Shown: piece by piece, positions 6,056-50,740 of the stretch
Layout: every line of letters begins with the position of its first letter
Numbering within the stretch: position 1 is the stretch's first letter
Source of the DNA: an uncultured virus (IMG/VR IMGVR_UViG_3300023179_000084)
Taxonomy: Duplodnaviria > Heunggongvirae > Uroviricota > Caudoviricetes
Direction: 5' to 3' (one strand)
Length of the DNA: 64,000 nucleotides
IMG/VR virus record: IMGVR_UViG_3300023179_000084
Made by a program: the position numbers and the translations under genes
The notes under the pieces: model-generated
Databases searched by the model: none
What the model was told of the DNA's origin: nothing
What the model saw: only the letters and a program-made list of their open reading frames with translations

Positions 6056-9000
6056 ATGGCAACTAATCTATCAGCTTTACAAATTGTTAATGAACGATTA
6101 TATGGTACTGTATTAACTGGCCTTCAGGGTGTACAAGGCGTTCAAGGTCAACAAGGTGTACAGGGTCCACAAGGTGTACAAGGGCAACAAGGTGTACAAG
6201 GGCAACAAGGTGTACAAGGTCAACAAGGTATACAGGGTGTTCAAGGTCAACAAGGCGTTCAAGGTCAACAAGGCGTTCAAGGTCAACAAGGCGTTCAAGG
6301 TCAACAAGGCGTTCAAGGTCAACAAGGCGTTCAAGGCATCCAAGGTCAACAAGGCATCCAAGGTCAACAGGGTACTAGTGGCCAAGCTGTATTTAAAGGT
6401 GATCAGGGTTTACAAGGCATACAAGGTATTATAGGAAGTACTGGTTTAGGGTTTAGTATAGCTAAAGTATATACTACAGTTAGTAATTTATTAGCAGATA
6501 CAAATCCTAGTAATATAGTCTATGGTCAATTTGGTTTAATTAATACAGTAAACATTAGTGATCCAGATAATAGTAAAATATATTTATGGACAAATACTGG
6601 TTGGGTATTCACAGCTGATTTAAGTGGAGCAACAGGTCCACAAGGTCCACAAGGTCTACAAGGTCTACAAGGTCTACAAGGTCTACAAGGTCTACAAGGT
6701 CTACAAGGTTTACAAGGTTTACAAGGTATTCAGGGTATTCAGGGTATTCAGGGTATACAAGGCATACAGGGTCAACAAGGTATTCAGGGTATTCAAGGTA
6801 TTCAGGGTCAACAAGGTATTCAGGGTCTACAAGGTATTCAGGGTATACAAGGTCTACAAGGTACTAGCGGTCAAGCTGTATTTAAAGGCGATCAAGGTAT
6901 TCAAGGTGCTCAAGGAATCCAAGGATATAGTATAGTATGGAAAGGAATTTATAGTGGCAGTACTATATATTCTAAAAATGAAACTGTATTCTATAATGGT
7001 ACAAGTTGGATATTTGTAAATAATAATCCTACAGCAGGCCAATTACCAGATACAAATAATGCAAATTTTTGGGAGCCTTTATCTAGTCAGGGTATTCAAG
7101 GTCAGCAAGGCACCCAAGGTTGGATTGGTATTCAAGGTCTACAAGGTACTCAAGGTATACAAGGTTTTGATGGTCTACAAGGTCTACAGGGTATTCAAGG
7201 TCTACAAGGTATACAAGGATATGAAGGTATACAGGGTACCCAGGGTACTCAAGGTCAACAAGGTATTCAAGGTCAACAAGGTGTACAAGGCTTAACAGGT
7301 ATACAAGGTGATTTTGGTATACAAGGTTTTGATGGTCTACAAGGCGTACAGGGTACTCAAGGTGTACAAGGCTTAACAGGTATACAAGGTGATTTTGGTA
7401 TACAAGGTACTCAAGGTATTCAGGGAACTCAAGGCTTAGGTTTAATAACTAAACAGCAATGGGATCCACTAGCAACATACATTATAAATGATATAGTAAC
7501 CTATCAAGGTAGTTCTTGGATAGTAACTTATCCTGTACAAGGTACAGATATTCCCGGAGTTAGTTTAGCTTGGACATTATTTGCGGCTCAGGGTCTACAG
7601 GGTCTACAGGGTCTACAAGGTCCACAAGGTGTACAAGGTCAACAAGGCATCCAAGGTCAACAGGGTATTCAAGGATTTGAGGGCTTACAAGGCATACAAG
7701 GGTTGGATGGATTATTTGCTGGTCAAGGTATTCAAGGTTTAGAAGGTTTACAAGGTCTACAAGGTCTACAAGGTCTACAAGGTCTACAAGGTCTACAAGG
7801 TCTACAAGGTACACAAGGTATTCAAGGAAGTACAGGTACTGCCTTTACTATAGCTAAAGTATATAGTACAGTTAGTAATTTACTAGCAGATACAAATCCT
7901 AGTAATATACTATATGGTCAATTTGGTTTAATTAATACAGTAAACATTAATGATCCAGATAATAGTAAATTATATATTTGGACAAATACTGGTTGGATTT
8001 TTGTTTCTGATTTAAGTGGTAGTGCAGGTATACAAGGCGTACAAGGTTTACAAGGTATTCAGGGTATACAAGGTCTGCAAGGTAGACAGGGTACACAAGG
8101 CGTACAAGGTCTACATGGACAATTTGCAGGTCAAGGCGTACAAGGTCTTAGAGGAATACAAGGTGTATTAGGCAAATCACCATCATTTTTAGGATCATGG
8201 GATTCTAGTATACAATATACAACCAATGATATTGTATATTTTTCTGGAGGATCTTGGGCAGCAATAGAGAACAATTATGCTACTGTACCTGTAGATTATT
8301 CTGGAAAATGGATGCCATTAACTGCACAAGGTATTGAGGGTTTACAAGGTATACAGGGTGTACAAGGTGTACAAGGTGTACAAGGAATAGGTTTTAATTG
8401 GATAGGAATTTGGAATAATTCTACTATATATAATAAAAATGATTTAGTAGAATATAATGGCTCTAGTTGGATTAGTTTATATAGCTATAATCAAAATCAT
8501 GCTCCACAATATACTAATTATTGGAGTTTAGTATCATCACAAGGTACAAGTGTACAAGGTACACAGGGTATACAAGGTATACAAGGTCAACAAGGCGTAA
8601 CAGGTATACAAGGTGATTTTGGTATACAAGGTACTCAAGGTCTACAAGGTATTCAAGGTACTCAAGGTCTACAAGGTATTCAAGGTAGATCAATAAATTA
8701 TAGAGGTAATTGGGATCCTAATTTATCTTACTATAGAGATGATGTAGTATTTTATTATTATAATTTATATATAGCACTAGTTAATCCACTAACAGGTTTT
8801 AATTATACACCTAATATAAATAATGCAGAATGGCAATTATTAATTCCAGAAGGTATTCAGGGTCCACAAGGTATTCAAGGTATACAAGGTACACAGGGTT
8901 TAGATGGTATTCAAGGTAATTTAGGTTTACAAGGTACTAAAGGAGATACTGGTTTAGGGTTTAATATAGCTAAAACTTATATAAGTGTAGCTGCACTAAT

Positions 9001-10558
9001 AGCTGATACTAGTCCGGTAGATATAATACCAGGTGAATTTGCTATTATTGAAACAGGAAATACTAATGATACTGATAATAGTAGACTATATCTTTGGAAT
9101 GGAGTTAACTATATTTATACTACAGATCTTAGTGGTGCTGTAGGTATACAAGGTTTAGAGGGTATTCAAGGTCTAGATGGTATTCAAGGTCTACAGGGTA
9201 TTCAAGGTCTACAGGGTATTCAAGGTATTCAAGGTCTAGATGGTATTCAAGGTCTACAGGGTATTCAAGGCATACAGGGTATTCAAGGTCAACAAGGTAT
9301 TCAAGGCATACAGGGTATTCAAGGTCTACAGGGTCGTCAAGGCATACAAGGTATTCAAGGTCAACAGGGTGTACAAGGTATACAAGGTATACAAGGCGTA
9401 CAGGGCGTTCAAGGCATACAAGGTTTAGACGGCCTATTTGCTGGTCAAGGTATACAAGGTCTACAAGGTCTACAAGGCATACAAGGTCTACAAGGCATAC
9501 AAGGTCTACAAGGTTTACAAGGTTTACAAGGTTTACAAGGTTTAGACGGACTATTTGCGGCTCAAGGTACTCAAGGTACTCAAGGTACTCAAGGTACTCA
9601 AGGTACTCAAGGCCTACAGGGTATTCAAGGCCTGCAAGGTATCCAAGGTACTCAAGGCGTACAAGGTTTTGGCTATCAGCAAAATCAAGGTGTGCAAGGT
9701 ACTCAAGGTATACAAGGTACTCAAGGTATTAGTATTCAAGGTATTCAAGGTATTAGTATTCAAGGTCAACAGGGTATTCAAGGTCTACAGGGTACTCAAG
9801 GTTTTGGCTATCAACAGAATCAAGGTACTCAAGGTACTCAAGGTACTCAAGGTACTCAAGGTACTCAAGGTACTCAAGGTACTCAAGGTATACAGGGTTT
9901 TGGCTATCAACAGAATCAAGGTATTCAAGGTACTGCTGGTACAAATGGTAGTCAAGGAACTGCTGGTACAAATGGTGCTCAAGGAACTGCTGGTACAAAT
10001 GGTGCTCAAGGAACTGCTGGTACAAACGGTAGTCAAGGAACTGCTGGTACAAACGGTAGTCAAGGAACTGCTGGTACAAATGGTAGTCAAGGTACTGCTG
10101 GTACAGGATTTAATTGGAGATCAAATTGGTCTGCGTTTAATGAATATTATATAAATGATGTAGTTTTTTATAATGGTAGTTCATATATAGCAATAGAAAA
10201 CAATCTTGATCTTATACCTTCATTTAGTCCAACTCATTGGTCTATAATTTCTAGTCAAGGCACTCAAGGTACTGTAGGCACAAATGGTGCTCAAGGAACT
10301 GCTGGTACAAATGGTGCTCAAGGTGTACAAGGTCAACAAGGAATACAAGGTACTAGTGGTTATGTGGGCAGTGATGGTGCACAAGGTATCCAGGGTATTC
10401 AAGGTTATGGTATTCAAGGTATTCAAGGTTATGGTATTCAAGGTATTCAAGGCATTCAAGGCTCTGCAGGTAATCAAGTAGTATTAAATTTAGATGGTGG
10501 TATGGCCGATAGTATTTATGGTGGCATTGATCCTTTTGATGCTGGTGGCGTTATCTAA
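6056..10558 (+). CDS. 1500-aa collagen-like fibre with interspersed globular domains
   Basis: G-X-Q triplet runs; three FxIAKxY...DLSG domains and about five W...Y..ND.V.Y.GSSW (CBM5/12-like) domains. Confidence 0.8.
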
Positions 10559-39777: not shown

Positions 39778-40527
39778 CTAGGCTGCTTTAGCCTCTGCTT
39801 TAGCACGCTTAGCAGCACCATCATAATCTGCAACTTTAATTCCACGACGTGTTAAAAGCGTTTTAAGACCGCGTTCAGTTTTATCAATAGCAGCTGCAAT
39901 TTCTGCAACCGTCATACTATGAATTTTATTTCCTAGTGCATTAACAGGATCAACTGTTTCTTTAGCGTAACTATTTTTCTGAGTAGGAATTTTAGCAATT
40001 TGACCCTTACGAGTTAAGCTAAGCGCTTTACCACGAACGCTTGCAACTGTTTTATTGAGTGCGGCAGCAATATCTTCGATATATGCACCACGTTCTGCCA
40101 TTTGAATAAACTTAGCTTCTTCACTATCAGTGTAAGTACGAGCTACTTCTACTTTTTCAGCAGGTTTAACACTACCTGTAAGTTCTAGTGCAAGCAATTT
40201 GCCTTGAATTTGTTTTGCTGTAAATTTACCTTCCATAAATTGCTCAGCAATTTGCTTGTAAGTAAATTTGCTATTATTACTAATAACAAATTCTGCAAGT
40301 TCAGCGCCTTCATCTTCAGTAAATGCACTTACTTTTTCTTTGGCCATGCTAGAAACTTCTACTTCAAGTTGACGAAGTTTACTTGCAACACTACGAGCTG
40401 TAAATCCTTCACCAAGTTGATCTACAACATATTCAACAGTGTTCACACTTACAGGACGCTGTGTTCCAATAAGTTTCATAAGTTTATCAACTGTAGCGTC
40501 AGACCATTTTTTTGTTTTTTCAGTCAT
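39778..40527 (-). CDS. D5: T5 D5-like DNA-binding protein
   Basis: RSVASKLR repeats; synteny next to ligase B. Confidence 0.8.
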   Translation of the reverse strand: MTEKTKKWSDATVDKLMKLIGTQRPVSVNTVEYVVDQLGEGFTARSVASKLRQLEVEVSSMAKEKVSAFTEDEGAELAEFVISNNSKFTYKQIAEQFMEGKFTAKQIQGKLLALELTGSVKPAEKVEVARTYTDSEEAKFIQMAERGAYIEDIAAALNKTVASVRGKALSLTRKGQIAKIPTQKNSYAKETVDPVNALGNKIHSMTVAEIAAAIDKTERGLKTLLTRRGIKVADYDGAAKRAKAEAKAA

Positions 40528-41284
40528 TTTTTAGTTCTCTTAAAAAGTTATTTAAGTTTGTAATAATTTTAATGCCGAGTTCGTCGGCCTTTTTACGTTT
40601 TGTACTACTATTACCTTCCTCATCAACTAAATAGTCCGTAGTTTTTGTTACAGATTCTGTTATATTAAATCCATTATTAACTAATATTTTATATGCTTCG
40701 GCTTTTGTTTTAAAGGACGATAATTTACCTGTAATACACACATTTTTATTATTAGTGTTTACTATAGGTATTTCACTTTGAAATGAAAAAGGTAAAAATT
40801 CTTTCATTTCTGGAAATTCTGTCTCTAACCAATTTAATAGATTTTGTGTTACTTTATCACCTAATCCAGCTTTTTTACAGGTTTCTATATTGATTTCACT
40901 AATATGATTAACTACACTACAAATTTTTATACTTGCTGTATTTCCTACTAGTGGTATACTCATACTAGCTAATACTTGTTGTAAGTTAGCACTACGACTA
41001 CGATCTAATTCACTAATTAATTTTTCAGCAATTTTTTGACTACCTAATTGTTTAGCTAACTGATCTACATCTAGATAATACAGTTCTGTAATATCAGCTA
41101 ATTCTAGCTTTTCAATAGTTTTAGTGCCCATACCCTTAATGCCCATAGTTTTACAAAAATGTTCAACTCTTTTTAGTAACTGAGCATCACAAGCCTGGTT
41201 GCGGCAAAACAATTGAGAATTTATTAATTCCAGAGGATAATTGCAACAAGGACAATGTGTTGGTATTTGTATCTTCATATTCAT
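40520..41284 (-). CDS. NAD-dependent DNA ligase subunit B (Zn finger, HhH, BRCT)
   Basis: CPCC...CRNQAC, HhH, VCITGKL BRCT. Confidence 0.85.
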   Translation of the reverse strand: MNMKIQIPTHCPCCNYPLELINSQLFCRNQACDAQLLKRVEHFCKTMGIKGMGTKTIEKLELADITELYYLDVDQLAKQLGSQKIAEKLISELDRSRSANLQQVLASMSIPLVGNTASIKICSVVNHISEINIETCKKAGLGDKVTQNLLNWLETEFPEMKEFLPFSFQSEIPIVNTNNKNVCITGKLSSFKTKAEAYKILVNNGFNITESVTKTTDYLVDEEGNSSTKRKKADELGIKIITNLNNFLRELKND

Positions 41285-41363: not shown

Positions 41364-42317
41364 TTATGCATCAACCTTATGCAGTATGCATGGTATGATT
41401 TCGCCACTACGTGCTACAGCTACAGTATCGCCAATCTTGAGATCTAGGGCTTCGATAAATCCAGGATTGTTGAGTGTGGCTCGGCTAACCAGTGCATCGC
41501 CAATATATACTGGTTCTAGTAAAGCTGTTGGAGTTACCTTGCCAGTTTTACCAACATTCCACTCTACTCCAATAAGTTTGGTTTCTACATGTTTAGCGCG
41601 CTCTTTAACTGCATAAGCGCCACGAGGATGTTTACTAGTATAACCCAATTGTTCAAATCTATTATTATCTACTACACGTACTACTAGTCCATCTGTAGGA
41701 TAGATTTTGTCTAAGTCTGGTTCTAAAACAGTATTAAACCCATTACTTTTTAGCCAAAGCATATCATCAACCCAACTTTTATTTACCAGTGGACTTATTT
41801 GATAAGCAAAAAACTGTATGGCACGAGTCCGAAATTCTGCTAAATCTTTTAAGTTTAGTGAGCCTGCAGCATAGTTACGGGCATTTTCAATATGTTTTGG
41901 TGCGGCGATTTCACCAGTAATTTGTAGTTTATGATTGCTGTTTATTTTTAGTGGAACTAAGTTACCGAACTCATACATTTTGTCTGTGATTAGTTGACCC
42001 TCAACTCCATCACCACGAGTAATAGCCATAGCTAAATTACCGTGTAGATATAGTAAACTAATGGCAGCCCCATCTAATTTAATACTAGTAGTAACTTGTT
42101 CATCTTTAAGTGGATTTTCACGGCCTTCATCAGAATACCACTTCTGCAAACTATACATTTGATAGGCGTGTTTGGCCTTGCGGCCATGTATTTGTGCACC
42201 TACTTTGTTATAGCCACAACTATCTGCTAATATATCAAATACTAAGTCATTAATAATTGGATTGCCTTGATAATAGGCTTTACTTGCTTCGTCTAGGTAT
42301 TTGTGTAATTTATTCAT
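41364..42317 (-). CDS. ligA: NAD-dependent DNA ligase subunit A (adenylation plus OB domains)
   Basis: KLDG, TRGDG, RNYAAGSL, DGLV, SGEIIP. Confidence 0.9.
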   Translation of the reverse strand: MNKLHKYLDEASKAYYQGNPIINDLVFDILADSCGYNKVGAQIHGRKAKHAYQMYSLQKWYSDEGRENPLKDEQVTTSIKLDGAAISLLYLHGNLAMAITRGDGVEGQLITDKMYEFGNLVPLKINSNHKLQITGEIAAPKHIENARNYAAGSLNLKDLAEFRTRAIQFFAYQISPLVNKSWVDDMLWLKSNGFNTVLEPDLDKIYPTDGLVVRVVDNNRFEQLGYTSKHPRGAYAVKERAKHVETKLIGVEWNVGKTGKVTPTALLEPVYIGDALVSRATLNNPGFIEALDLKIGDTVAVARSGEIIPCILHKVDA

Positions 42318-47393: not shown

Positions 47394-47422
47394 ATTATAT
47401 CAATTTACAAACAACTTGTCAA
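47394..47422 (-). promoter_or_regulatory. sigma70 consensus promoter
   Basis: TTGACA-17-TATAAT. Confidence 0.85.
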
Positions 47423-47471
47423 CAAAATATTTTTACAACAAAAAACCCAGCCTAAGCTGGGCTATGGTATT

Positions 47472-47550
<79 letters not shown>

Positions 47551-47551
47551 A

Positions 47552-47627
47552 TGGAGCGGGAAACGAGTCTCGAACTCGCGACCTCAACCTTGGCAAGGTT
47601 GCGCTCTACCAACTGAGCTATTCCCGC
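47552..47627 (-). tRNA. tRNA-Gly (GCC)
   Basis: GCGGGAATAGCTCAGTTGGTAGAGC...CTTGCCAAG...TTCCCGCTCCA. Confidence 0.97.
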
Positions 47628-47715
47628 ACTTTTATTAATTCTACTTTTAAGAATTTATACTGATCTAAGTACCAACGTAAAAAATATTGTGATTTTTTAC
47701 TAAGATCAATGTAGT

Positions 47716-47925
47716 CTAGTCTTTCCACTGATCTACATCATCAGCATCATCATCTTGTTTTGCACTAGTAATTACTAGGTCAACATTGGTATGATTATCT
47801 AATTCATCAATTATTTCAGCTAATTTTTTTAGTAGATTAGTATGTTCATAGTAATCTTCGTTATCACAAGTAAAGCTAATTTCTAAGTTATGTGTAGTTA
47901 ATTGTAGGTGCATAATAATTTCCAT
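47716..47925 (-). CDS. Hypothetical acidic protein
   Basis: ORF. Confidence 0.5.
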   Translation of the reverse strand: MEIIMHLQLTTHNLEISFTCDNEDYYEHTNLLKKLAEIIDELDNHTNVDLVITSAKQDDDADDVDQWKD

Positions 47926-47931
47926 ATGTTA

Positions 47932-48100
47932 GCGGCGGTTGATTGGTTAATAAGGCCAACCGCCAAAACCCCACTTAGCTTATGCAGCTAAGGCGTAAAC
48001 CTCATCATTTGCGTTTACTTTAGTTTGCTAGAATTACGCTCTTCGCCTAGCGAGTTGTCCACTTTAGTACTCTTCACCATGTCGAATCTAAGTCGGGCCC
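47932..48100 (-). ncRNA. ssrA: Two-piece tmRNA, coding piece (tag ANDEVYALAA* at 48012-47980)
   Basis: 5' GGGCCCGACTTAGATTCGAC; pk1-like element; tag ORF; terminal GGCGGTTG/CAACCGCC hairpin. Confidence 0.92.
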
Positions 48101-48648
48101 ATCAATAAATGTTCTAGCCTATGGCAATTTGGACATAGTAGTATACATTTATTAAGTTCTGGAATAATAGTAGAGATAAAAGTTTCTAATGAAGCCGATC
48201 TACTGACTCTGCTAATTTCAAATTCTTTATCGAAGTCATCTAGGTGATGAAAATCTAAAGATCCCGGAACATTTGTATAACTACAGTTACTACATTCATA
48301 TTTTTTATTTAAACTATTAAGATAGTCTAATATATACGAATGAAATTTGTCTTTTCTAGAAGAATTTTCGCAAGATTTGCAACTTGGTTTATATTTTATT
48401 TTACCTGTATTAGTTTTGCCATTAGAATAAAATTCTGTTAAAGGTAAATTTTTATTACAATTATTGCAAGTTTTTATACCAGATTCTCTATCTAATTTTT
48501 TAGAATTAGGAGATAAACCAACTAAACCATTTTTTCGTTTAAAATCTGTTATAGTTGTTCTACTACAACTATATATTTCTTGCAATTCTTTTATTGTTTT
48601 ACCTTGTAAAACTAATCTAGTAAATTCTTCTATGTCTATGTCTGCCAT
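48088..48648 (-). mobile_element. HNH homing-type endonuclease gene inside the tmRNA intervening segment
   Basis: CNNC/CKSC zinc finger; CSNC...LDFHH...CPNCHRLEH; RBS AGGAG. Confidence 0.85.
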
Positions 48649-48681
48649 AATTAACTCCTACGTTAATTCTAAAATACTTAT

Positions 48682-48746
48682 TGGTGGACCCGGCGAGGAA
48701 CTGCCCCTCGCGTCCACAATGTTTTTCCCTCTATATCATACAACTA
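48682..48746 (-). ncRNA. ssrA: Two-piece tmRNA, acceptor piece
   Basis: GGAC GCGAGG GGCAGTT CCTCGC CGGGTCC A CCA; pairs with GGGCCCG giving G3.U70. Confidence 0.9.
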
Positions 48747-49181
48747 TAAAGTTTGTACTATTTCACGAATACGTTCTTCTAAAACGCTGATAGCAGTATT
48801 ATAGTGACCACCATCATGATCCATAGATTTATACTTCTTTTTTAATCTTTCTACTTCACGAGTAAGTACATCAATCTTAACGTGATCATCAGGACTTTGA
48901 CCTGGATAAATACTATTGTGAATTGCTAAGTAGCCTGCACACTGTGCTTGTAGATAGCTGCTTTCATCAAATCCAAAAATTTGATAGAGTACATAGCGAT
49001 AACTACCTTGCTGTTCAATCTCGCCACGATAGATTCTACGACTCACAGCGCAAAAAGCATCAAGTTGCTGCTCTTTGGTTAGTGAATTCCAGTACTGTTC
49101 ACTCTTATCTTCAAATTCTTTGATCATTTGATCAAAAACTTCGCTAGTTTTGTCAAGGTTTTCTAGTAGTTCACTACTCAT
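48744..49181 (-). CDS. Hypothetical phage protein
   Basis: ORF. Confidence 0.55.
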   Translation of the reverse strand: MSSELLENLDKTSEVFDQMIKEFEDKSEQYWNSLTKEQQLDAFCAVSRRIYRGEIEQQGSYRYVLYQIFGFDESSYLQAQCAGYLAIHNSIYPGQSPDDHVKIDVLTREVERLKKKYKSMDHDGGHYNTAISVLEERIREIVQTL

Positions 49182-49399
49182 GACGTAATTTTTCCTTGTT
49201 GTGTTATTGATTCAAAACAATCCCACAATTTATTAAATTTTAACTCATAAATAGTTTCTAAGCCAAGTAAATAATTTGCGATCTTGTCACGAGTATATGT
49301 ATCATCTTCTAGTACTTTTTCGTAAAGATGTTTAATCTCTGTAGTAATTTCCCAGTTTTTTAATATAAGTTGTTCTAGGTCAAATCGAGTATAGTTCAT
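49178..49399 (-). CDS. Hypothetical phage protein
   Basis: ORF with coupled overlaps. Confidence 0.55.
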   Translation of the reverse strand: MNYTRFDLEQLILKNWEITTEIKHLYEKVLEDDTYTRDKIANYLLGLETIYELKFNKLWDCFESITQQGKITS

Positions 49400-49863
49400 T
49401 TTAGTATAAATTTTAGTCTATCAGCTGCATATGTAGCAGCAAATGCCTTAGGTTTAATTAATGCGTCTAGGTTGCAGGTTCCGCGTATATATCCTATAGC
49501 TTGTTGCACTACTTGATTACTAGCATGTTTTACACTAGCATTAATATCAAGATGTACTTCTACCAATCTATCTTCAATAACATCTTTTAATTGTAAATAT
49601 ATTTCACTAACTTTATAAACTTCTGTCATTAGTCTAATATTAGGTTTATCTTTACGTTGATCGTAATCGCGTTCACGTTGATAGTAACCAAATATTTTAC
49701 AACCATGTTTACCATCTATGTGTACTACAATAGCAACAGTATAATCTGCATACCATATACTATCTAAGCGATTACGTTCGCTATCAGCTCCTAGGTATAT
49801 TTTAGTTTCTTGACTGCTATTTAAAATATAGTCTTTAACTTCTTCTATATTAAATGGCTTCAT
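49396..49863 (-). CDS. RNase H-like YkuK (DUF458) family protein
   Basis: IYLGADS...RLMTEV...EVHLDIN...KP.AFAATYAAD. Confidence 0.8.
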   Translation of the reverse strand: MKPFNIEEVKDYILNSSQETKIYLGADSERNRLDSIWYADYTVAIVVHIDGKHGCKIFGYYQRERDYDQRKDKPNIRLMTEVYKVSEIYLQLKDVIEDRLVEVHLDINASVKHASNQVVQQAIGYIRGTCNLDALIKPKAFAATYAADRLKFILK

Positions 49864-50127: not shown

Positions 50128-50682
50128 TTATACCTCTGATTGTCCTGTTATATGCCAATTATCATTAAAAATTAGTGTTATTGATTCGTAAGGTGACTGT
50201 AATACAATTTGATCACTATTGTCTATTTTATCACCATTTTGTGTGATTATATAAATTTTTTTATTTTCTAGTTGTTTTTGCTGTGCTTTAATAATAATCA
50301 TTCTACCTTTTTCAGGCTTTAGTGGTAAAATAATATCTATCTTTTTTTCGTTTAAAACTCCTATATAGCAGTCGTCTGGTTGTACATAGTAAGTATCTTT
50401 AACAATTATTGTGTTTAATATACAGGCTTGATTAATGGGTGCAGGTGGTCCTGGTGGACCTGGATCACCTTGAGGTCCTTGTGCTCCCATAGGGCCTTGT
50501 ATGCCCTGTGGTCCTGGCGGACCCTGTACGCCTTGTGGCCCTTGTGGACCTGGAGGCCCTTGACCAGTACTAGTATTAATAATTAAATCGTTATCACTAA
50601 TTGATTGTTTAGGCGGTAAACTATACTGAGGCGGTGCTTGAAAAAACCACGGTGGTGGTAAAAAATATTGTGTTTGATACAT
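50128..50682 (-). CDS. Collagen-like (G-P-X) protein with fibre-type C-terminal domain
   Basis: [10 protein letters not shown] repeats; DDCYIGV...IILP...YESITL...WHI. Confidence 0.7.
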
Positions 50683-50740
50683 TATAATCTCCAATAAGAG
50701 CCCTACAACTTTAGGTTGTAGGGCAAATAGCTATTAAAGA

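Follow-up and report, generated by a model that had tools for sequence, protein, structure and literature searches.

We propose that a permuted, two-piece transfer-messenger RNA (tmRNA) gene of an uncultured Caudoviricetes phage (IMG/VR record IMGVR_UViG_3300023179_000084) is a working gene whose intervening sequence (IVS) has been invaded by a free-standing homing-type endonuclease gene of the HNH class, and we give this reading a probability of roughly 80%. The gene occupies positions 47930-48745 on the minus strand of the 64,000-nucleotide (nt) stretch that was analysed, called the window here. In the direction of that strand the tmRNA acceptor piece is followed by an IVS of 581 nt and then by the coding piece, so that the 3' tRNA-like half lies upstream of the 5' half, and the same permuted order is found in 40 unique related alleles. 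Permuted tmRNA in bacteria was reportedly first shown in Caulobacter by Keiler, Shapiro and Williams in 2000, and permuted precursors are said, by the same authors, to be matured by RNase P at the 5' end and by tRNA-type processing at the 3' end. The sequence-only reading from which this work started had described an acceptor piece, a spacer, a coding piece and a tag, and every statement about this anatomy was reproduced when the minus strand was read again.

The identity of the gene is evident from its base pairing and from its relatives. The acceptor stem strands GGGCCCG and CGGGTCC pair at all seven positions, the G3.U70 pair included, and the two helices that join the pieces are paired at six of seven positions (P2a) and at six of six (the distal helix). 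The pairings CATGGTG/CATTGTG and ACAACT/AGTTGT, noted earlier as segments of helix 2, are indeed present, and both helices covary in the relatives. With the Rfam model RF04321 the coding piece alone (47980-48129) scores 55.6 bits against a threshold of 47, relatives score 94-139 bits (110-139 bits for L001 and L003-L006), and full-span matches across a long IVS were obtained for L059 (53.2 bits) and L002 (94.2 bits). The model of the beta-proteobacterial two-piece type, RF01850, gives 122-132 bits in L004-L006, and in L004, a relative that lacks the HNH gene, ARAGORN calls a permuted tmRNA with the tag ANDEVYALAA and a stop codon, as in the window. Because both pieces are homologous to those of full-scoring relatives the identity of the gene is beyond doubt, and, judged by its sequence, the locus is a permuted (two-piece) phage tmRNA gene.

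The related alleles are IMG/VR loci, six of which (L001-L006) were found through a 19-nt acceptor stretch (three loci) or the upstream 145-amino-acid (aa) protein (three loci), and a further 51 (L007-L057) through a motif of the coding piece. The distance from the CCA to the first base of the coding piece (G1) can be measured in 45 of the 51 motif-found loci and never exceeds 167 nt, the other six being cut by a contig end. A comparison with related phages for alleles without the nuclease had been suggested as a check on the sequence-only reading, and it gave a clear answer, in that 35 of the 40 unique alleles are HNH-free, with an IVS of 38-167 nt, four (the window, L059, L060 and L061) carry the HNH gene in an IVS of 574-582 nt, and one (L002) has an IVS of 453 nt. 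A tblastn search with six family proteins across L001-L065 detected no HNH remnant at E<=1 in any HNH-free allele. When 33 of the 35 HNH-free alleles were folded with RNAalifold (L013 and L025, with the longest IVSs, were left out), the distal helix, P2a, the T-arm, the acceptor stem and a stem that closes the IVS were all predicted, with compensatory changes on both sides in 21 of the 37 predicted pairs. The G.U column of the acceptor stem is invariant in all 33 and the pairs next to it covary. P2a occurs in 22 sequence variants with 4-7 of 7 positions paired, and compensatory changes in the distal helix are seen in L002 and L060. One related permuted allele, L038 (minus strand, about 1190-1275), has an unencoded CCA and only a few bases between the acceptor 3' strand and G1 (CATCTCC-A-AATCAG-GGGGGATG).

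The IVS closing stem has a fixed register, in which base +i, counted from the base after CCA, pairs with base -(i+4), counted back from the base before G1. Of 36 unique alleles, 35 form between 7 and 13 of the 13 possible pairs in this register, and the window, with arms ATAAGTATTTTAG and CTAGAACATTTAT, has 12. The earlier claim that the spacer ends pair with each other thus stands, at 12 of 13 positions in the shared register; its count of 14 of 15 takes in the C and A of the CCA and two G.U pairs. The linker between the stem and G1 is TGAT or TAAT in 32 of the 36 alleles, and the stem covaries in the 33 folded HNH-free alleles also. In the HNH alleles the 3' arm doubles as the codons E-H-L-L/V, whose histidine is the final metal ligand of the HNH motif, and the linker with G1 is read as Leu/Val-Met. 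Position +1:-5 nevertheless covaries among these alleles, being A-T in the window and L061, C-G in L059 and G-C in L060, and therefore RNA pairing has been kept against a coding constraint. This argues that the long precursor would still have to fold, and the retention of the closing stem in the HNH alleles thereby speaks for a tmRNA gene that is in use.

That the spacer might instead be an ordinary self-splicing intron with a homing endonuclease is an explanation that we consider barely credible. Group I introns are known in the T-loops of tmRNA genes and some of them have LAGLIDADG genes, according to the 2025 tmRNA database paper (PMC11915505), and in locus L064 a group I intron is flanked by the gene of a distant homologue (31% identity) of the HNH protein. 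However, a search of both strands of 47700-49000 with group I and group II intron models returned nothing at E<=10. The locus is permuted in its gene order, as are the HNH-free relatives, whose spacers measure 38-167 nt, and the expected products are two released RNAs with nothing spliced together. The statement that the spacer is not an intron is upheld by these results.

The nuclease gene itself had been described as a 186-aa HNH open reading frame (ORF) with its own ribosome-binding site and a stop codon inside the coding piece, and this is borne out by the ORF list and by a match of the protein to PHROG 2255, 'HNH endonuclease' (E=1.1e-27). Pfam returns weak helix-turn-helix (HTH) matches alone for the window protein, and the Pfam HNH cutoff is reached just by the protein of L060 (21.8 versus 21.4 bits). 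The residues D132, H134, H135, C172, C175, H176 and H180 are invariant in 40 family sequences, which gives the C-terminal part of the protein the invariant motif DxHH...CPxCHRxxH. An AlphaFold model built from the 40 sequences has a mean predicted local distance difference test (pLDDT) score of 88. Many HTH DNA-binding domains match its residues 1-51 (Z 4-5.6), the top match of residues 52-99 is the zinc beta4-alpha2 domain of Hpy99I (Z 7.6, root-mean-square deviation 1.6 Å over 48 residues), and the C-terminal helix extends to residue 183. As modelled, the protein is composed of an N-terminal HTH, a Hpy99I-like zinc beta4-alpha2 domain and a C-terminal HNH core. A PacI-like fold was considered and rejected, as PacI is absent among the matches listed and Hpy99I ranks first. 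In a sequence search of the PDB with the HNH protein the best match was a short McrA HNH motif at E=0.38, and with the model Foldseek found nothing in the PDB at E<=0.001. Around the locus there are 8 sigma-70-like promoter matches versus 8.8 expected by chance, and with no excess over chance there is no basis for assigning the HNH gene a promoter of its own. Ahead of the gene, the 19-mer AATTAACGTAGGAGTTAAT forms a hairpin with a stem of 6-7 base pairs (bp) and a 6-nt loop (GUAGGA), with GGAG at the loop-stem junction, and it is invariant in the window, L059, L060, L061 and L062, the proteins of which are 53-67% identical to that of the window.

Searches with the protein showed that the same nuclease family occupies the same site in other, diverged tmRNA genes. 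The HNH proteins of L059, L060, L061 and L062 are 53, 63, 58 and 67% identical to that of the window, respectively, the contig of L062 ending inside the gene, and another locus (L012/L058), whose contig also ends inside the gene, has an HNH C-terminus identical to the window's. L059 has its own tag, which reads AANDAYFGEERLAA*. In L059-L062 the CCA is followed by 12-15 nt, then by the invariant 19-mer and the ATG of the HNH gene, and in the three loci in which the 3' end is present (L059-L061) the HNH frame crosses G1 and ends within the coding piece. A search of the protein database at E<=1e-5 gave 73 homologues, of which 63 are full-length with 45-99% identity and none is meaningfully named. 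The signature [LIV]xxG follows CxxCHxxxH in 61 of the 73, and [LIV]xMG does so in 48. Fourteen homologues read on as ...GFD or RFD, which is the UUCGAC of the tmRNA in frame, and several over-long (miscalled) N-termini, such as WTRGAVPRRVHQ, are the acceptor piece in translation. The tails and N-termini carry tmRNA sequence, which places the whole family in tmRNA genes; from these sequences it appears to be specialised for, or confined to, the spacer of two-piece tmRNA.

Outside this setting the search for the family gave partial matches. Among 50,697 phage records there is no full-length high-identity copy; relatives in T5-like phages match over residues about 59-180 alone, with 42-47% identity, and lack the N-terminal HTH. 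A set of 185,579 prokaryote species, each represented by one genome, yielded no full-length member, and a scan of these genomes with the family alignment returned 19 loci, all matching the HNH core in part and most of them from DPANN archaea. A blastn search of 47400-49400 against the phage records matched tRNA genes and nothing else.

Nuclease genes of other kinds were seen at related loci. The 453-nt IVS of L002 contains a 131-aa LAGLIDADG-like ORF on the opposite strand (L002:2522-2917, minus strand of that locus), which begins MNIQYLAGLFDGEG, matches PHROG 5046 at E=3e-22 and scores 22.5 bits for LAGLIDADG_1 against a cutoff of 23.1; the ends of this IVS have 5 of 13 pairs in the usual register. 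In L059 a GIY-YIG gene (L059:1789-2484; 27 bits in Pfam, PHROG 314 'homing endonuclease') lies directly 3' of the coding piece, which makes two nuclease genes at one tmRNA locus, the HNH gene in the IVS and the GIY-YIG gene beside it. The distant HNH relative in L064 (252-799) adjoins an intron that matches RF00028 at 70 bits, and the HNH nuclease core is accordingly found in classic intron settings too.

Signs of mobility are found in the sequence that flanks the IVS. The closest HNH-free relative is L004, whose flanks are 97% identical to those of the window and whose IVS is 70 nt versus 581 nt. In the 650 nt upstream the window matches L004 at 633 of 650 positions and L003 at 399 of 717, and in the 45 nt before the T-arm the values are 44/45 and 32/47. 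From the T-arm to the CCA they are 23/30 for L004 and 29/30 for L003, in nt 1-20 of the coding piece 15/20 and 20/20, and in nt 21-170 of the coding piece 144/150 and 102/164. Hence the 50 nt that hug the IVS are of the L003 type (49/50, versus 38/50 for L004) inside a background of the L004 type. The change that this brings to the acceptor stem, A-T to C-G, is compensatory because both strands of the stem flank the IVS. A second mosaic is seen in metagenome contigs. X5 record 21 (47941-48935) differs from the window by 9 substitutions and 1 deletion, all in 47995-48023 and none in 48024-48935, and X4 record 13 has the same 9 differences and 4 others farther downstream; the HNH gene is identical to the window's in X9 record 29 and X2 record 6. 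The tag of the variant contigs, read from the listed changes, would be ANDEVFALAA, as in L005 and L006, and these contigs would represent a recombinant allele. An identical cassette of HNH gene, tRNA-like domain and acceptor is therefore joined to differing tag regions across lake samples. Mosaics of this kind fit the pattern expected of a homing gene that spreads with short co-conversion tracts, and this is a fit and not a proof.

A homing endonuclease cuts the nuclease-free allele, and repair copies its gene in. In the reading that we favour, the acceptor stem and the conserved IVS closing stem would bring both processing sites together in the folded precursor, cleavage by RNase P would generate the 5' end at G1 (48100), the acceptor piece would be matured at its 3' end to the CCA (48682), and the whole stretch between them, HNH message included, would be discarded. 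The insertion would be without cost to the tmRNA because the entire IVS is thrown away. The nuclease would presumably cut the HNH-free tmRNA alleles of co-infecting relatives, and repair would transfer the cassette along with some tens of bases of the adjoining tRNA-like domain. Sequence comparison shows the layout of the locus, the polymorphism of HNH-bearing and HNH-free alleles, the use of one site in diverged genes, the mosaic around the IVS and the kept, covarying stems. The RNA processing, the activity and target of the nuclease, and homing itself are the steps of this scheme that we infer.

The 3' end of the HNH gene raises a further possibility. The frame ends ATG GGC CCG ACT TAG, with its last four sense codons and the stop across or inside the coding piece, and there is no stop in the HNH frame before G1. 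The stretch of IVS released by RNase P would be a non-stop message because no in-frame stop precedes G1. On such a message ribosomes would stall, tmRNA of the host or the phage would add ANDEVYALAA, the nuclease would be degraded, and its output would be limited to the short life of the unprocessed precursor. As an addition to the favoured reading this self-limitation, which the sequence-only reading had raised, is tentative and in our view rather doubtful. Consistent with it, 62 of the 63 full-length family members have at least 4 residues past the last histidine and hence extend across the RNase P site, the TGA or TAA of the conserved linker is always out of the HNH frame in HNH alleles, and arfA reportedly provides a precedent of control via a non-stop message (PMC10107115). 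However, compaction of the gene end against the conserved IVS stem would explain the overlap equally well. The 3' arm of the closing stem includes, at 9-11 nt ahead of G1, the codon for the last metal-binding histidine, and the modelled C-terminal helix continues up to residue 183, so the frame has little room for an earlier stop. Moreover, stop positions within the family range from nt 5-7 of the coding piece to more than 80 nt inside it, a spread that suggests that no one end has been selected for. That the family is adapted to the excised spacer in such a way that RNase P maturation strips its stop codon, making the nuclease a tmRNA substrate unless it is made from the precursor, is thus a possibility to which we likewise lend limited credence.

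Several points weigh against a working tmRNA gene colonised by a homing nuclease. The check by tmRNA models, which the sequence-only reading had proposed, was passed with Rfam on the coding piece and not with ARAGORN, which makes no tmRNA call on the window. The above-threshold Rfam score is confined to the coding piece, the acceptor piece matching alpha_tmRNA weakly, at just 15 bits. Within the window's own tmRNA subfamily few alleles have the HNH gene (1 truncated locus among the 51 motif-found loci). Two RNA-library contigs span the whole IVS at a depth like that of the flanks, which may reflect DNA carry-over; they run through acceptor piece, IVS and coding piece and, being assembled, are silent on transcription and strand. 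No joint that skips the IVS is listed among the assembled contigs of four runs, and contigs cannot show RNA ends. Ordinary recombination unrelated to the nuclease could make mosaic flanks, and the strict tie between the family and tmRNA genes could mean a function for the phage and not pure selfishness.

The missing ARAGORN call and the Rfam score on one piece alone are what would be expected if the insertion had killed the tmRNA gene and the two pieces were decaying remnants, and a 581-nt loop might hinder the folding of the precursor. We nevertheless hold this to be very improbable. The acceptor stem is intact at 7 of 7 positions with G3.U70, P2a and the distal helix remain paired at 6/7 and 6/6, and the tag frame is intact and the same as that of L004, to which coding nt 21-170 are identical at 144 of 150 positions. 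The closing stem, with 12 of 13 pairs, covaries among four diverged HNH alleles, and both pieces are kept in all of them.

A function for the phage would take a different form. The HNH protein might bind its own tmRNA locus, or attack a permuted ssrA gene of the host or of a competitor, with the phage tmRNA taking over ribosome rescue. The strict association of the family with tmRNA genes and the N-terminal HTH domain, absent from the T5-like homologues, agree with such a role, and because the phage tmRNA belongs to the two-piece type of beta-proteobacteria (RF01850), the target sequence could be present in host ssrA as well. The gene is, however, patchy among near-identical phages, 35 of the 40 unique alleles are without any nuclease, and no full-length member occurs in the prokaryote genomes scanned. 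Patchiness is typical of homing genes and not of useful ones, and we regard a service to the phage as unlikely. The coordinates of all features are collected in Table 1.

Table 1. Features of the two-piece tmRNA locus and its surroundings in the window
Feature	Position	Strand	Remarks
Stop codon of upstream 145-aa ORF	48746-48744	-	
tmRNA acceptor piece, ~64 nt	48682..48745	-	3' end is the CCA at 48682
Distal-helix strand AGTTGT	48745-48740	-	acceptor piece
P2a strand ACATTGT	48722-48716	-	acceptor piece
GGAC	48715-48712	-	acceptor piece
T-arm, 6-bp stem and 7-nt loop	48711-48693	-	acceptor piece
Acceptor 3' strand CGGGTCC	48692-48686	-	then ACCA, 48685-48682
IVS, 581 nt	48101..48681	-	expected to leave the precursor by tRNA-type processing
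IVS closing stem, 5' arm ATAAGTATTTTAG	48669..48681	-	12/13 pairs with 48117-48105
19-mer AATTAACGTAGGAGTTAAT	48650..48668	-	small hairpin with the Shine-Dalgarno sequence of the HNH gene
HNH endonuclease gene, 186 aa	48088..48648	-	AGGAG 6 nt before ATG
IVS closing stem, 3' arm CTAGAACATTTAT	48105..48117	-	also codes the end of the HNH motif (E-H-L-L)
Linker TGAT before G1 (RNase P leader)	48101..48104	-	part of the Leu-Met codons of the HNH gene
tmRNA coding piece, ~170 nt	47930..48100	-	G1 at 48100; 3' end approximate
Acceptor 5' strand GGGCCCG	48100-48094	-	coding piece
HNH stop codon TAG	48090-48088	-	nt 11-13 of the coding piece
P2a strand ATGGTGA	48080-48074	-	coding piece
Distal-helix strand ACAACT	48058-48053	-	coding piece
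Tag frame GCA AAT GAT GAG GTT TAC GCC TTA GCT GCA TAA	48012-47980	-	ANDEVYALAA*
3' hairpin of the coding piece	about 47964-47934	-	
tRNA-Gly(GCC) and tRNA-Met(CAT)	47472..47627	-	downstream of the tmRNA; then a terminator-like hairpin, 47463-47444

The window is phage DNA, with genes for collagen-repeat tail fibres, ribonucleotide reductase, SbcCD-like proteins, family-A DNA polymerase, primase, DnaB, NAD ligase and ThyX, and near-identical sequence is present in lake and freshwater metagenomes of several studies. It contains seven tRNA genes, of which those for tRNA-Gly and tRNA-Met are probably in the same transcription unit as the tmRNA. The possibility of a general nuclease hot spot upstream of the tmRNA was considered and rejected, as the inserts of 1.0-1.8 kb found there in L005 and L006 are without a visible ORF with a nuclease motif (judged by eye, with no family scan). 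The first two ORFs of the L005 insert (L005:761-1504), between the conserved upstream gene and the tmRNA, have IscA/IscU-like motifs by eye, and these ORFs, resembling those of Fe-S cluster assembly, may be auxiliary metabolic genes. Elsewhere in the window the NAD-dependent DNA ligase is encoded by two adjoining ORFs on the minus strand, 41364-42317 (PHROG 3359) and 40520-41284 (PHROG 3498), about 80 nt apart, which may represent a split gene, an intervening element or a frameshift. A tail-fibre-like protein of 1500 aa (6056-10558, plus strand) consists largely of collagen-type repeats (PHROG 5073, 13 matched stretches), and there is a further collagen-repeat ORF at 50128-50694.

Compared with known systems, the locus shares with the permuted tmRNA genes of RF04321, RF01850 and RF01849 the order of the pieces, an encoded CCA, the 7-bp acceptor stem with G3.U70, the inter-piece helices, an alanine-rich tag and an aquatic phage setting beside tRNA genes. 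Two-piece tmRNA of an aquatic phage has been described in the Methylophilales phage Melnitz (PMC9004378). The present locus differs in that its IVS is 581 nt and not tens of nucleotides, and in that the frame of a protein gene overlaps the mature 5' end. In the accessible text of the tmRNA database paper a tRNA-Ala or a repetitive element are the sole inserts mentioned for permuted IVSs, and 36 of 883 group I introns of tmRNA T-loops have LAGLIDADG homing endonuclease genes (PMC11915505). Those introns and the present IVS both carry a homing-type nuclease gene in RNA that is removed before function. Here, however, removal would be by tRNA-processing enzymes, with no ribozyme or intron fold, and the gene is of the HNH type and not LAGLIDADG, with a frame that ends in tmRNA sequence. 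Free-standing nucleases of the T4 type, such as SegB, which is located in the T4 tRNA gene cluster (PMC2330249), are also without intron or intein, among tRNA-like genes and patchy, with flanking markers co-inherited. Seg and Mob genes lie between genes, whereas the HNH gene is inside the transcribed and processed spacer of an RNA gene and its family is apparently confined to that site. The protein shares the zinc beta4-alpha2 domain and HNH core of Hpy99I, a restriction endonuclease of the beta-beta-alpha-Me type (PDB 3fc3), and, over residues 59-180, 42-47% identity with HNH proteins of T5-like phages (e.g. Salmonella phage NR01), but it has an additional N-terminal HTH (1-51) and a C-terminal tail derived from tmRNA sequence. 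Full-text literature searches, with passages of the papers that they led to, turned up no account of a nuclease gene placed in the IVS of a permuted tmRNA.

Homing genes are known between genes or in self-splicing introns and inteins, and the gene described here is apparently erased by ordinary tRNA-processing enzymes. If this is true, it would represent a third kind of harmless lodging, without ribozyme or protein splicing, and the spacer of two-piece tmRNA would tolerate at least 0.5 kb of foreign coding RNA provided that the closing stem is kept, which would also explain the failure of gene finders on such tmRNAs. The family has about 60 sequence clusters, all of which carry either no name or a wrong one in public data, and its members are ready for annotation. 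The locus would bring RNA processing, translation and trans-translation together on one transcript in a natural setting, and if the self-limiting reading were also true, the dose of a selfish gene would be set by the processing and function of the very RNA that hosts it.

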